From contig WRCD01000001.1 in NCBI GenBank assembly GCA_009784185.1, positions 129,698-193,697 of the forward strand: 64,000 nucleotides of DNA, in the 5' to 3' direction. This document shows, in pieces, positions 29,973 to 60,891 of the stretch (position 1 is its first letter; each line of letters starts with the position of its first letter). Position numbers and translations under genes: made by a program. The notes beneath the pieces were generated by a model. That model was not told where the DNA came from, made no database searches, and saw nothing but the letters and a program-made list of their open reading frames with translations. The stretch is from Bacillota bacterium. GTDB lineage: Bacteria; Bacillota; Clostridia; Christensenellales; UBA1242.

Positions 29973-30022
29973 GGAGCGAAAGCGACCCGTAGTTGTTACC
30001 TGTTACCTGTTCACTGTTCCCT
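29973..30022. repeat. Heptamer-arm repeat family, right half (core + 4 x 7 bp)
   Basis: GGAGCGAAAGCGACC-CGTAGTT-(GTTACCT)(GTTACCT)(GTTCACT)(GTTCCCT). Confidence 0.8.
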
Positions 30023-30293
30023 GAAACTTTGGGTGGCAGTTATATTCGTTTACCAGCACTTTAATTGTTTCGTCATTTGCGTCAGGCACCGTAATATAAT
30101 ACCAGCCTTTCTTTATTCCTTTAAATATTGCCTTGCCCTGGCGGTTGGATTTTAAAAAATAAACTTGTCCCGTCTGGTCGTCTTTCATATATACGGCCTT
30201 ACCGCAGGCGGGGCATCCGCTTTTATGTTTGAGGTTTATTCTAATGCAATACGGAATGTTGTTTTTATCCCGTCCTGGTTGGGGATAGCTCAT
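30003..30293 (-). CDS. Small hypothetical protein with a possible beta-sandwich (Cna-B/carboxypeptidase-regulatory-like) segment
   Basis: 96 aa. QGKAIFKGIKKGWYYITVPDAN resembles the G.Y.V motif of such domains. There is no strong SD, and the C-terminal codons are supplied by the heptamer repeat. Confidence 0.45.
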   Translation of the reverse strand: MSYPQPGRDKNNIPYCIRINLKHKSGCPACGKAVYMKDDQTGQVYFLKSNRQGKAIFKGIKKGWYYITVPDANDETIKVLVNEYNCHPKFQGTVNR

Positions 30294-30462
30294 ACTGCAT
30301 TCTATGCTGATAAAAATTGTATGGCTACTGTTTAAAATAATGCGGGATAACAGCCAAAAGATTAATTTACAAACAAATTGTTTAAAAGGTATTTACTTTT
30401 TTTTGTGTATGTGTTATGATAGGGCAACCATAGGAAATTCGGGACAATAAGGAGAGAGTTTA

Positions 30463-31191
30463 ATGGCTAATTTAAAAAAGACAAACGGTATGTTGCTGGT
30501 AACTGAATACAGTAATGGACTGGACACAAAAGCAGATACTGTATACGATGTAATAAAAATGCACATAAATTTTGGCGGTCATATTGGAGCCACAAGGGTG
30601 GCAAAAAAATTTGAAGACGGCTCATTTGTTTTTGCGTTTCCAAAAGAGAAAGAGGGAATGTACGACACGACCATTAAGCTTGCCGACACTGAACCGGGCG
30701 CTGCGGTTTGGCTTAGTCTTTTTGGTCTGGACAACCCAAAACTAAAAGCTGAAATGATTATGGCTGCAACAGCTAAGGTGCTGGAACCCGAATTTGCAGT
30801 GCTTATAGCTAAGCGAACGGCGGCAGAGGGTAAACTGGACTATGACATGTCGTTGGAAGGCATTAAGCGGGTTATCGGTACTGTTGAGACCGAGATGAAA
30901 AGTAAAACGCCGTCTGTTAAAGCAATAAACAAAGCTTTTGAGTTGGACAAGATTGCTTTCGGCAGCAGGGCAAGTGATTTTATTGAAAAAGCGGGTAATC
31001 ATTGTACCATGGTTGTTCTTGAAGCCGGGATATTGGTGGACCACAACATAGCAAACCTGAAGCCGGACGGAAAAAGTTTTAAGGATTTAACAAAAAATCA
31101 AGTTAACACAAAAAACTTTGTTATTGCTTCAGCGGATATTGCTGACTTTATGCAAAAAACAAACAAGGGCACTCCTGTTGCTACAAAGTAA
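30463..31191 (+). CDS. Hypothetical protein
   Basis: AAGGAGAG SD, 242 aa, no recognised motif. A hairpin terminator (AAACTACCC-aat-GGGTAGTTT) follows. Confidence 0.6.
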   Translation: MANLKKTNGMLLVTEYSNGLDTKADTVYDVIKMHINFGGHIGATRVAKKFEDGSFVFAFPKEKEGMYDTTIKLADTEPGAAVWLSLFGLDNPKLKAEMIMAATAKVLEPEFAVLIAKRTAAEGKLDYDMSLEGIKRVIGTVETEMKSKTPSVKAINKAFELDKIAFGSRASDFIEKAGNHCTMVVLEAGILVDHNIANLKPDGKSFKDLTKNQVNTKNFVIASADIADFMQKTNKGTPVATK

Positions 31192-31284
31192 CAATGAAAA
31201 CTAAACTACCCAATGGGTAGTTTTTGTTTGCCAAAATAGGCGTAAATATTCTATAATTAAACAGAATATAAGTTGGGGATACAA

Positions 31285-31650
31285 ATGGGAGTTTTTGATT
31301 ACCTGGATAAAGAAGAGTTTAATGCAAATCTTCAGATTAAGTTTTACTTAATCTGGGGCAGGCTTAGTTTTTACATTGCGCTTGGCGGGCTGGTGATTTT
31401 TCTGGTTAACATCCTTCTTTATTTTACTATTCCGGGACTTGCCGGCAACAATATTCCGATTTTAATTCCGTCTATGTTTGCACTTGCTGCGGGAATTACG
31501 GGCATGGTGTTTGCTCAGTTCGGCGCCAAGGGAGCCAAAGAGCGCAAGGTTAAATGTGCAATTATAGGTGCCGGAAGGGCGCTTAGCATATTGGTGATGC
31601 TCTACAGCCTGACTTTGGTGCTTGCGGGTATTTTAGTGGCGGTACTGTAA
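31285..31650 (+). CDS. Small integral membrane protein (3-4 TM helices)
   Basis: The ATG at 31285 is preceded by GGGGA. Hydrophobic segments include LSFYIALGGLVIFLVNILLYFTI, ILIPSMFALAAGITGMVFAQF and ALSILVMLYSLTLVLAGILVAVL. Confidence 0.6.
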   Translation: MGVFDYLDKEEFNANLQIKFYLIWGRLSFYIALGGLVIFLVNILLYFTIPGLAGNNIPILIPSMFALAAGITGMVFAQFGAKGAKERKVKCAIIGAGRALSILVMLYSLTLVLAGILVAVL

Positions 31651-31653
31651 GCG

Positions 31654-31684
31654 GGGAACAGGGAGCAGGGAACAGGTAACAACG
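31654..31684. repeat. Heptamer-arm repeat family, left arm only (4 x 7 bp)
   Basis: (GGGAACA)(GGGAGCA)(GGGAACA)(GGTAACA)ACG. This is the reverse complement of the arm at 29995-30022. Confidence 0.75.
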
Positions 31685-49109: not shown

Positions 49110-49159
49110 GGAGCGAAAGCGACCTATAATTATTAAGTATTCAATATTCATTATTCATT
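49110..49159. repeat. Heptamer-arm repeat family, right half
   Basis: GGAGCGAAAGCGACC-TATAATT-(ATTAAGT)(ATTCAAT)(ATTCATT)(ATTCATT). The core is identical to the copy at 29973. Confidence 0.8.
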
Positions 49160-49171
49160 AAAAAGAGCCGT

Positions 49172-49804
49172 TTACGGCTCTTTTTGTACCATTTCTTTTA
49201 CTTTCATCAGGCGCACGCGGCTGCCGCGCTCGTTTTCCTCCAGCTTCATGCCAATGTACTTAATTGTTTCATGCAGGTCGGGAATCACCACGTGCTCAAG
49301 CGCGTTTATCCGCCGGCGGTTTTTTTCTATTTCAGCCGCCAGCAACACACAGGTTTTTTCTGTTGCTGCCAGCTGGATAATTTTTATCAGCAATCTGCTT
49401 ATTGTGCTTACGGCATAGTCCAGCTGACTTGAGGTGGTTAAAAAGCTATATGGAAGTGCGCCGGTGTTTTTAACCTCTATATCAAAAAATTCCGGCACGT
49501 CCAGGCCCATAATTGTGGTTTTGCTAGGGACGAAGCTGTAACTCATAACCGGAGTGCTGAGCGCCTCCTCAATGGCCTTTGGAGGCATGGCGGCACGCGC
49601 CATACTAAACGCCCGCTGCGCCTGCTCCAGTTCATGTTCCAGTTCTTCACGTATTTTTTTGTTCTCAAAAATGTAATTCATAAACTGACGAATCATTTCG
49701 TCACTTTTGTCTTTTAACAGTTTATGCCCCCTTACCGCCATTTTGCGCCGCGCTTTAAGTTTGCGCTGCTCCATACGGGTGGAGTTTACATTTAACTTGG
49801 CCAT
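49172..49804 (-). CDS. ntpD: V-type ATPase subunit D
   Basis: 210 aa coiled-coil protein starting MAKLNVNSTRMEQRKLKARRKMAVRGHKLLKDK. It is the last gene of the operon, and the terminator hairpin AAAAAGAGCCG-ttta-CGGCTCTTTTT spans its stop. Confidence 0.88.
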   Translation of the reverse strand: MAKLNVNSTRMEQRKLKARRKMAVRGHKLLKDKSDEMIRQFMNYIFENKKIREELEHELEQAQRAFSMARAAMPPKAIEEALSTPVMSYSFVPSKTTIMGLDVPEFFDIEVKNTGALPYSFLTTSSQLDYAVSTISRLLIKIIQLAATEKTCVLLAAEIEKNRRRINALEHVVIPDLHETIKYIGMKLEENERGSRVRLMKVKEMVQKEP

Positions 49805-49821
49805 GAGTCTCCTTTGGAGAC

Positions 49822-49935
49822 AGGTAACAGGTAACAGGTAACAGGTAACAACTGCGGGTCACTTCGTTCCCAAAAAACACATATCGGAGCGTTAGCGACC
49901 AATCATTGTTAAGTGTTAAGTGTTAAGTGTTAAGT
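49822..49935. repeat. Heptamer-arm repeat family, complete element (between ntpB and ntpD)
   Basis: (AGGTAAC)x4 - GGGTCACTTCGTTCCC - 14 nt - GGAGCGTTAGCGACC - AATCATT - (GTTAAGT)x4. The last heptamer overlaps the ntpB stop. Confidence 0.85.
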
Positions 49936-51306
49936 GTCAGTCGGGTAGTATTTGTCTAAGATTTCAACCTTAATTCGTTTCAGTTCCGCTCTTGGCAGCA
50001 TTTTTAACAGCTTCCAGCCGAGGTCAAGTGTTTCATCAATATCACGGTTGGTATAAAAGCCTTGTGCAATATACTCTTTTTCAAAAGTATCCGCAAACTT
50101 GGCGTATAGCTTATCCAGGTCGGTAAGTGCCGCCTCGCCTAAAATGGCCGACAGTTCTTTGCTGTCTTTTCCGCGCGCATATGCCGCAAACAACTGGTTC
50201 ATAGTTCCGCTGTGGTCTTCACGCGTTTTGCCGGCACCAATGCCTTTGTCTTTAAGTCTTGACAAACTCGGCAGCACGTCAATCGGCGGAGTAATTTTTG
50301 CCTTGGTCAGCTCGCGCGAAAGCATAATTTGGCCTTCGGTAATATATCCGGTAAGGTCGGGTATGGGGTGAGTTTTGTCGTCCTCGGGCATGGTTAATAT
50401 CGGCATAAGCGTAATGCTGCCGGGCACTGCTTTTATTATTCCCGCACGCTCGTAAAGAGAGGCTAAGTCTGTATACATATAGCCTGGGTATCCGCGTCTG
50501 CCGGGCACTTCTTTTCTTGCCGCAGATACTTCACGCAATGCTTCTGCGTAGTTTGTTATATCGGTGATAATTACCAGCACGTGCATTCCCAATTCAAAAG
50601 CCAGATACTCGGCGCAGGTAAGTGCAAGGCGCGGAGTAGCAATACGCTCCAGCGCAGGGTCGTTAGCAAGGTTCATAAACAGTACCGCGCGCTCAATTGC
50701 GCCGGTTTTTCTAAAGTCCTGAGTAAAGTAATCAAATTCTTCATATGTAATTCCAACCGCCGCAAAAACAACCGCAAACCGGGTGTCCTGACTCAGCACT
50801 TTTGCCTGCCGTGCAACCTGAGCCGCAAGCTGGGCGTGCGGCAGACCGCTCATGCTGAATACCGGCAGCTTCTGCCCGCGCACCAATGTGTTAAGCCCGT
50901 CTATGGCAGACACGCCTGTCTGTATAAATTCGTTCGGGTGCTGCCTTGCTGTAGGATTGATAGGTAAACCGTTTACGTCCAGGTTCTTATCCGGGATTAC
51001 ATCTCTGCCGCCGTCTCTCGGGCGCCCAAGTCCGTCAAACACCCGCCCAAGCATATCCCGTGACACTTTAAGCTCTAAGCCCTTGCCAAGAAAGCGCGCT
51101 TTGCTTGTGGCAATTTCCAGCCCCTGGCTGGACTCGAACAGCTGAACAACCGCATTGCTGCCGTTAACTTCCAGCACTTTTCCAAGGCGCACTTCGCCGC
51201 TGCTTTGCACAATTTCCACCAGTTCGTTGTACTTAACCCCTTCCACATTTTGCACCAGCATTAACGGGCCAACAACTTCTTTAAGTGTTTTATATTCTCT
51301 CAGCAT
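49930..51306 (-). CDS. ntpB: V-type ATPase subunit B
   Basis: 458 aa with conserved V1-B sequence ([31 protein letters not shown]). Confidence 0.93.
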
Positions 51307-60780: not shown

Positions 60781-60891
60781 AGGGAACAAGGAACAGGGAA
60801 CAACGAACAACGACGGGTCGCGTTGCTCCAAATAACTATCTCGGAGCGCAGCGACCAATAGTTGTTACCTGTTACCTGTTCACTGTTACTT
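60781..60891. repeat. Heptamer-arm repeat family, complete palindromic element (rpsG-fusA spacer)
   Basis: (AGGGAAC)(AAGGAAC)(AGGGAAC)(AACGAAC) - GGGTCGCGTTGCTCC - 13 nt - GGAGCGCAGCGACC - AATAGTT - (GTTACCT)(GTTACCT)(GTTCACT)(GTTACTT). The arms and the cores are mutually reverse-complementary. Confidence 0.88.

Follow-up and report, generated by a model that had tools for sequence, protein, structure and literature searches.

A gene-less heptamer-array repeat in a clostridial V-ATPase operon as a likely derivative of an intervening-sequence-like four-helix-bundle cassette

Arrays of four tandem heptanucleotides at the boundaries of genes, known for decades from cyanobacteria, Xanthomonas, Geobacter and Beggiatoaceae, have lacked an accepted explanation. 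The cyanobacterial STRR are another family of four tandem heptanucleotides, and contiguous 7-bp units are also recognised by the omega repressor of inc18 plasmids (pSM19035), which places one dimer on each heptad of direct or inverted units. In Geobacter metallireducens, arrays of four heptanucleotides (Gmet_H4) lie between genes (PMC2700814). The GGGNATC arrays of Xanthomonas and Nostoc include 70-75 inverted pairs, and their preference for four units has been ascribed to G-quadruplex formation (PMC4692102). TAACTGA arrays occur in Beggiatoaceae, cyanobacteria and Bacteroidetes (PMC4679880).

Heptamers are also found in the intervening sequence (IVS) of the Coxiella burnetii 23S rRNA, which has a 28-bp stem with tandem GACAGAT heptamers, contains an S23p ORF and is cleaved by RNase III; such ORF-bearing 23S rRNA IVS, as in Coxiella and Leptospira, have been proposed to be mobile now or to have been so formerly (PMC4990558).

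The repeat described here lies in a stretch of 64,000 nucleotides (C1:129698-193697, hereafter the window) from the metagenome-assembled genome (MAG) of an uncultured member of the Clostridia, which comprises 1.16 Mb in 19 contigs and is 94% complete. The relatives with which it was compared are at genus distance or farther. In this genome, gene-bearing and gene-less forms of the element are found side by side, tied together by a common non-repetitive core, and this shared core indicates that the gene-less arrays descend from, or travel with, a four-helix-bundle cassette.

The element between ntpB and ntpD

An earlier note on this DNA had described a palindromic repeat inside the V-ATPase operon, with four heptamers in each arm, which overlaps the stop codon of ntpB. 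The arrays, cores and spacer read as stated there, with a spacer of 15 nt and a right linker of 6 nt:

49822-49850, minus strand: left heptamer array, AGGTAAC four times at 49822-49849, which is TGTTACC four times in its own orientation
49851-49870, minus strand: left linker CGCAGT and variant core GGAACGAAGTGACC, a core variant exclusive to dimers (7 copies)
49871-49885, no strand assigned: central spacer separating both cores, 15 nt, at the place where the full cassette has a gene of ~370 bp
49886-49906, plus strand: canonical core GGAGCGTTAGCGACC (49886-49900) and linker AATCAT, from the sequence and a pattern search
49907-49934, plus strand: right heptamer array, TGTTAAG four times, including the ntpB stop codon (TAA, minus strand, 49930-49932)

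Tandem Repeats Finder gives both arrays a period of 7, 4.4 copies and 100% matches. The left core reads GGTCACTTCGTTCC at 49857-49870, with AACTGCG between it and the left array; in its own orientation it is a systematic variant, GGAACGAAGTGACC. The arms, of 28 nt each, are complementary at 20 of 28 positions and belong to two heptamer types, TGTTACC on the left and TGTTAAG on the right. There is no PF05635/TIGR02436 gene between them, only the 15 nt that separate the cores. The ends have the same core, linker, phase and orientation as those of the gene-bearing copies described below; because the gene is absent, we filed this copy as a derivative and not as a full member of the cassette family, although five sister copies have one.

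The neighbouring genes were identified by Pfam as the B subunit (49930-51306, minus strand) and the D subunit (49172-49804, minus strand) of a V/A-type ATPase, so that the location in the operon is borne out, as is the overlap with ntpB, whose stop codon falls inside the last heptamer. The start codon of ntpD is 17 nt from the outer end of the left array, and this stretch contains the ribosome-binding site. At 49805-49821, right after the element, the ntpD ribosome-binding site is itself part of a small hairpin of the mRNA strand (GUCUCC-AAA-GGAGAC), whose formation is predicted by the MFE fold. No intrinsic terminator was predicted within 49805-49935 on the minus (mRNA) strand, and candidates for an intrinsic terminator or a promoter within the element were rejected as unconvincing. 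No Rfam family matched, either at the gathering score across the window or at E<=1 on the element.

The ntpB-ntpD spacer has 125 nt here versus about 0-20 non-coding nt at nine homologous junctions from eight related genomes, at several of which the stop codon abuts the start codon. None of the nine junctions in this comparison, which the earlier note had proposed, has an element-sized spacer, and the copy is an insertion relative to these relatives.

Further copies are present in the window:

60782-60890, no strand assigned: second full dimer, in the rpsG-fusA spacer, with arrays at 60782-60809 and 60863-60890
60816-60829 and 60843-60856, no strand assigned: cores of the second dimer as read from the sequence, the left one (reverse complement) followed by a spacer and the other core
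29973-30022, plus strand: solo half unit of core, linker and TGTTACC-type array, with a GGGGAAT hairpin repeat directly before it
31654-31684, minus strand: heptamer array of the same type without a core, from the array scan
49110-49158, plus strand: solo half unit of core, linker and TATTAAG/TATTCAT array, with a GGGGAATT hairpin repeat before it
49159-49186, no strand assigned: host bidirectional terminator-like hairpin AAAAAGAGCCG-TTTA-CGGCTCTTTTT, adjoining the 49110 array

The copy at 60782-60890 has the same full layout as the ntpB-ntpD copy, as claimed, but its 14-nt core GGAGCGCAGCGACC has N2 instead of N3 at the centre, which explains why an exact N3 search gave only three cores in the window. 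Its arms, previously taken for reverse complements, are complementary at only 20 of 28 positions. Three half copies had been listed in the window; those at 29973 and 49110 were found as such, but the one at 31654 is an array without a core. The fusion of half copies to another repeat family was also found, both solo half units being preceded by hairpin repeats. In the hairpin at 49159-49186, the ntpD stop codon is in the loop and the last ntpD codons form the terminator stem. Gene blocks between inverted arrays (29973-31684, and ntpD between 49110 and 49822) were considered and rejected as cassettes: their cores are outside, opposite to the cassette orientation. About three such short-range cases were seen versus about two expected from a rough estimate based on unit density, and we take these brackets as chance clustering.

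The repeat family and its gene-bearing cassettes

When the search for further copies was extended to the whole genome, as had been suggested, 46 exact cores of the form GGAGCG-N1-2-AGCGACC were found by pattern search, and a profile made from these 46 cores detected 70 units (nhmmer, E<0.01), so that chance can be dismissed as the source of the family. Its basic unit is a half unit, in which a core of 14-15 nt is joined by a 6-nt linker to about four TRTTMMN heptamers that keep a fixed phase. As position 9 of the core is A in 45 of the 46, the core, which had been called nearly invariant in the form GGAGCG-N3-GCGACC, keeps its conserved blocks but is really GGAGCG-N(1-2)-AGCGACC. In 43-45 of the 46 units, the bases at +22, +29, +36 and +43, counted from where the core begins, are T; the heptamers thus follow T-R-T-T-M-M-N with a periodic T, which puts the array in fixed phase with the core, and the periodicity is kept when more copies are aligned. 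A core-independent scan for period 7 gave 50 arrays, nearly all of the family type, 32 of which have a core at the fixed distance. The number of heptamers is four in 46 of the 70 units, five in 14 and three in 5, and the constant period and preferred copy number, claimed from a few copies with changing heptamers, therefore hold across the units. While the core blocks and TRTT are near-invariant, the one or two central bases of the core, the linker and MMN vary freely. In full dimers, two half units face each other head to head, with the cores on the inner side, 8-15 nt apart, and the arrays on the outer side; about ten such dimers and two partial ones were counted, ~10-12 of roughly 60 loci. 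The element had been described as a whole palindrome, but palindromes are a minority and the half is the basic unit.

In many bacterial genomes, heptanucleotides are the commonest class of 5-11-nt repeats, for which polymerase slippage has been proposed (summarised in PMC4679880). If replication had slipped on short AT-rich motifs at gene boundaries and thereby made each array where it stands, the family would not be mobile and the likeness of its loci would be due to convergence; some arrays are indeed perfectly homogeneous. We hold this to be very improbable: most arrays have a 14-15-nt non-repetitive core at a fixed distance and in a fixed phase, and this shared core largely refutes slippage. 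Moreover, the dimers have derived variants and spacers in common, inverted arms with matching unit order are paired around one gene family, and the pattern is absent from the 440 related genomes tested.

At three loci, the same head-to-head ends are separated by ~370 bp between the cores, with one interior ORF of 116-123 aa each. These ORFs belong to the large PF05635/TIGR02436 four-helix-bundle family, annotated as '23S rRNA intervening sequence protein' (E 1e-29 to 1e-33). Among the eight PF05635 genes of the genome, five are located between inverted arrays, in four cases together with the same core and linker; in three of the four cored cassettes the ORF crosses the 3' core and ends in ...SE(R/Q)SDQ*. 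The fifth armed gene is flanked by TTATAAT-type arrays without a core. The five comprise four arm types, represented by the genes at C1:67572, C3:47056, C5:98495 and C5:109782, and one gene-bearing cassette spans C5:98455-98942. For all five, fold prediction gave a terminal stem of 31-61 bp around the ORF with end-to-end pairing. The full cassette has about 480 bp, and this full-length form codes for a four-helix-bundle protein only, with no transposase. At C6:19478-19667, only the first codons of the gene are present between the cores, and this locus is an intermediate form.

In public genomes, the cassette proteins have 39 homologues with 46-62% identity, in Oscillospiraceae, Paludibacteraceae, Prevotella, Bacteroides, Saprospiraceae, Rickettsiales and others, including the CPR hosts Shapirobacteria, Gracilibacteria and SR1. 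Inverted 7-periodic arrays bracket 29 of the 34 closest homologues, i.e., those of the 39 with enough flanking sequence, versus none of 54 neighbouring ORFs at the same loci. The arm sequences are lineage-specific (CGTAATT, TTGACCA, AATGCAG, GCAGAGT, AGAGTTT and others). The family is thus not wholly of an unrecognised kind, as it had seemed from the window: PF05635 genes between such ends occur both here and across many phyla, and there are precedents in print.

Two further four-helix-bundle genes were noted on other contigs. At C13:230-880, such a gene (441-773), with a palindrome of GTGAAAC-type heptamers in front of it, is flanked by tRNA genes at 230-302 and 808-880; a comparable copy occurs in the genome of a sister genus, and the setting resembles an intervening sequence of an rRNA/tRNA operon. 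At C6:1-85, four AATATCATT boxes, 7-13 nt apart and not heptamer arrays, precede a four-helix-bundle gene at 86-418.

Seven dimers, including the ntpB-ntpD copy, consist of one canonical and one variant core (GGAACGAAGTGACC, two transitions; GGTCACTTCGTTCC on the other strand), and they have alike spacers (ATTAATAT, ATTATAT and the like) and alike right halves. The variant core was never found alone. This common derived variant traces the seven back to a single gene-less dimer, as opposed to seven independent deletions, and the gene-less dimer seems to have multiplied as one piece. Solo half units are more numerous than dimers, and simple deletion of the cassette gives no explanation for the solo halves.

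The exact core-plus-heptamer pattern was not found in 40 relatives (24 sister genera) or in 400 further genomes of the class, and there are eight PF05635 genes here versus 0-1 in the 24 sister genera. However, 11 metagenome contigs with no other relation to the genome carry the same core with TATTCAT-type or other heptamers. Such a patchy occurrence is in line with DNA that moves horizontally. At the rpsG-fusA locus, identified by its S7 gene, the element has an identical sequence in two other assemblies, and the exact NtpD protein has no record elsewhere. The flanks of the aligned dimers have no target-site duplications or direct repeats. Matches to (GTTAAGT)4 on plasmids of Erwinia and Sodalis were judged unrelated: they are without the core, beside a ParA-like ATPase or in unannotated DNA. 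These perfect (TGTTAAG)4.4 arrays, on Erwinia persicina pEP1 and Sodalis praecaptivus pHS1, resemble partition-site iterons, and one of the two adjoins a small ORF and the ParA-like ATPase.

Arm complementarity differs between the two forms. In the three cassettes with both half units detected, the arms match at 25, 26 and 27 of 28 positions, and these well-matched cassettes differ in heptamer type (TGTTACC, TATTCAT and TATTAAG). Matching across differing types is covariation between paralogous cassettes. In gene-less dimers, 14-24 of 28 positions match, with a background of 17, and several of these dimers, the ntpB-ntpD copy included, are hybrids of two arm types. Pairing thus appears to be kept where the gene is present and to have decayed or been exchanged where it is absent, which suggests that selection maintains pairing only in the presence of the gene.

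Transcription, genomic setting and recognition

Since the element is placed between the ntpB stop codon and the ntpD ribosome-binding site with no terminator predicted, we infer that it is transcribed with the ntp operon. On the mRNA strand its predicted fold has -41.3 kcal/mol (z -4.6) and consists of 5-bp helices broken by 2x2 internal loops; the rpsG-fusA copy reaches -51.7 kcal/mol (z -6.6). In place of the ~50-bp hairpin that had been proposed, an interrupted stem is predicted, and most gene-less copies pair imperfectly. The genome encodes an RNase III and the stem is probably cut by this enzyme, a step that is less sure in gene-less copies with their poorly complementary arms than in gene-bearing ones.

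A hairpin in this position might have been selected by the host for RNA processing or stability, setting cistron ratios in ntpB-ntpD and rpsG-fusA as REP/BIME do in E. coli operons. Both operons are highly expressed, the element is found exactly between stop codon and ribosome-binding site, its folds are clearly stabler than shuffled sequence and the RNase III is encoded. However, the same operon in relatives does with about 0-20 non-coding nt between these genes, gene-less copies have decaying or mismatched arms, most units, being solo halves, are unable to form the hairpin and many are in untranscribed orientation behind terminators. We give this possibility little credence.

The genomic setting was analysed with simple longest-ORF gene calls, on which the following statistics rest. 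Between co-directional genes, 21 units are sense and 26 antisense; 13 are between convergent and 4 between divergent genes, and 6 are inside a called ORF. The outer array end is usually ~0-30 nt from a gene start or end. In 19 of the 70 units (27%), the array ends right at the foot of a host-specific hairpin, versus 6.5% of random intergenic positions (p = 8e-8). The hairpins are mostly bidirectional terminators with an A-run, a stem and a T-run, and three of 11 metagenome units, inspected by eye, likewise end at a hairpin.

On their core side, units often adjoin a GGGGAATT two-hairpin unit, whose distance varies, a member of a second hairpin family or a partner core. The second family, ttctatc..gG-GATTGCTTCG-N21-CTCGCAATGAC-AG, has 55 copies, of which 10 are followed by a core and heptamer half unit at a fixed 8-11 nt. 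In this family, with examples at C1:206138, C3:22811 and C14:2807, the central 21 nt vary like a covarying inner hairpin. In three half units (C2:59797, C5:27201 and C5:26329), the core follows a fourth small repeat, gctgacg.ggtctgttaggtgcc.tcgcaaatcacat.c.ccgtcacttcgc.gccac. On three unrelated metagenome contigs, a two-hairpin repeat of the CCCCTC...GAGGGG type is found before a core and heptamer half unit, so that the neighbourhood of both families recurs outside the genome.

As to mobility genes, the genome has a single IS200-like Y1 transposase, a single DGR-like reverse transcriptase accompanied by an Avd-like gene, and a DUF559 nuclease; none of them showed linkage to the units. The flanks of the single Y1_Tnp gene (C2:101419-102186) contain repeats of other kinds and neither a core nor a heptamer unit; a RAYT/REP model was rejected for the family, as this transposase is not flanked by its units. 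The Y1 protein has a C-terminal HTH and could be the RAYT of one hairpin family. Its gene has AATCAAA-rich repeats upstream and is followed by a ~35-nt tandem repeat (CACCCCCGTCCCCCTGACCATCCCC...) translated into the start of the next ORF. The DGR-like module at C1:275967-277479 consists of an Avd-like ORF (a weak bAvd match, below the Pfam cut-off) and, directly after it, a 343-aa reverse transcriptase with an LGNxxSQ motif; a GGGGAATT-type repeat is seemingly translated in the N-terminus of the Avd-like ORF. DGR-type adenine mutagenesis was rejected as the origin of the diversity among heptamers: variation does not fall on the A's, and the complementary strand keeps its A's unchanged. The DUF559 (Vsr-like) endonuclease gene is at C1:278886-279251, at the end of contig C1.

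An invariant core and TRTT next to a free linker and MMN are not what neutral decay of recent copies would leave, and they point to sequence recognition. This conservation pattern fits sequence-specific recognition of the element, and it would also fit a binding site used by the host; it is the main evidence both for a protein-binding array and for recognition by the four-helix-bundle protein. In the first case, the core and four TRTT heptads would be a cooperative site, on DNA or RNA at gene boundaries, for a putative protein with sequence specificity, which might be a global regulator of the host or the four-helix-bundle protein of the cassette. GGAGCG, AGCGACC and T-R-T-T are fixed in contrast to the variable 1-2 nt of the core centre, the linker and MMN; phase is fixed with four units strongly preferred, and the core is kept on unrelated metagenome contigs with other heptamers. 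Regulator binding ('global regulator sites') has also been proposed for the four-heptanucleotide arrays of Geobacter (PMC2700814). Nevertheless, the neighbouring genes have no common function, both orientations are about equally frequent (26 versus 21), many units lie beyond terminators and the absence of the family from all 440 related genomes leaves no conserved regulon, so that we consider a binding array of this kind quite unlikely.

In the second case, which we consider unlikely, the half unit would be the cis-acting recognition module of a new transposase-less mobile element, whose Avd-like protein would read the heptads and core and direct copying or insertion next to hairpins. The heptads would be read in a 7-nt register, and the targets would be terminators, other hairpin repeats and rRNA helices. 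If this were true, it would explain together the 23S rRNA IVS, the STRR-like arrays in many phyla and the function of PF05635. The genome would offer a natural test bed for it, with five armed genes, four arm types and ~70 gene-less units.

Overall, we regard it as likely that the element between ntpB and ntpD is a gene-less, MITE-like selfish derivative of an IVS-like four-helix-bundle cassette, carried in operon transcripts. The full cassette is a PF05635/TIGR02436 (Avd-like) gene between two inverted core-linker-heptamer ends, and the gene-less dimer seems itself to have multiplied through the genome; outer ends are found preferentially against host hairpins (terminators) and gene boundaries. 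Transcribed in the ntp operon, this copy would form the interrupted hairpin (-41 kcal/mol), which RNase III would cut like the stems of the 23S rRNA IVS, splitting the operon transcript at little cost, and the element would persist as selfish or neutral DNA. It counts against this explanation that no movement was seen, the rpsG-fusA copy being the same in the two other assemblies, that there are neither target-site duplications nor a linked transposase, that the conservation pattern would also fit a binding site of the host, that the arms of gene-less dimers are poorly complementary and that solo halves are not accounted for by deletion. On balance, selfish DNA is the most likely nature of the repeat, as opposed to a dedicated regulator.

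Comparison with known systems

The heptad arrays of the omega repressor are likewise contiguous 7-bp units, and they illustrate that a 7-bp register can be a protein-binding ruler; they differ in being a plasmid regulatory or partition site, with no link to a four-helix-bundle gene and no interspersed copies.

MITEs, REPs and BIMEs resemble the family in being short, non-coding, multi-copy, palindromic and intergenic and in their relation to a gene-carrying element (PMC10969869, PMC3184786, PMC2817692), and they also form mosaics with other repeat families, often beside terminators. As in MITEs, there are terminal inverted repeats, a small size and many copies. In contrast to MITEs, the family has no target-site duplications and its full-length element has no transposase; its ends, unlike those of MITEs and REPs, are tandem arrays whose sequence changes between copies, and, unlike in the REP/RAYT system, its units do not flank the single Y1 gene.

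With the published heptanucleotide arrays the family shares period 7, the preference for four units, the occurrence of single and inverted-pair forms and a lineage-specific heptamer, as well as the location at gene boundaries and inside operons, including those for ribosomal proteins. The difference is that PMC2700814, PMC4692102 and PMC4679880 name no gene family and no conserved core. G-quadruplex formation was rejected here, the heptamers (TGTTACC, TATTCAT and TGTTAAG) having no G-tracts. A preference for four units in such heptamers argues against the explanation given in PMC4692102 and favours a ruler of ~28 bp, set by helix length or protein register; the change of heptamer while core, phase and the number four stay likewise speaks against G-quadruplexes and for a structural or protein ruler. 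Together with the shared core and the abutment of array ends against hairpins, this makes a descriptive puzzle experimentally testable.

A further related system is the ORF-bearing 23S rRNA IVS. The ntpB-ntpD copy differs from these IVS in being gene-less and in lying in an mRNA operon spacer between protein-coding genes and not in rRNA; on the contigs tested, which are small contigs of the assembly, no rRNA gene was found. The family as a whole differs by its conserved sub-terminal core, its ~70 units and its many solo halves. The gene-bearing copies, however, have exactly the build of the Coxiella IVS, with a PF05635 gene in a heptamer-bearing inverted-repeat stem.
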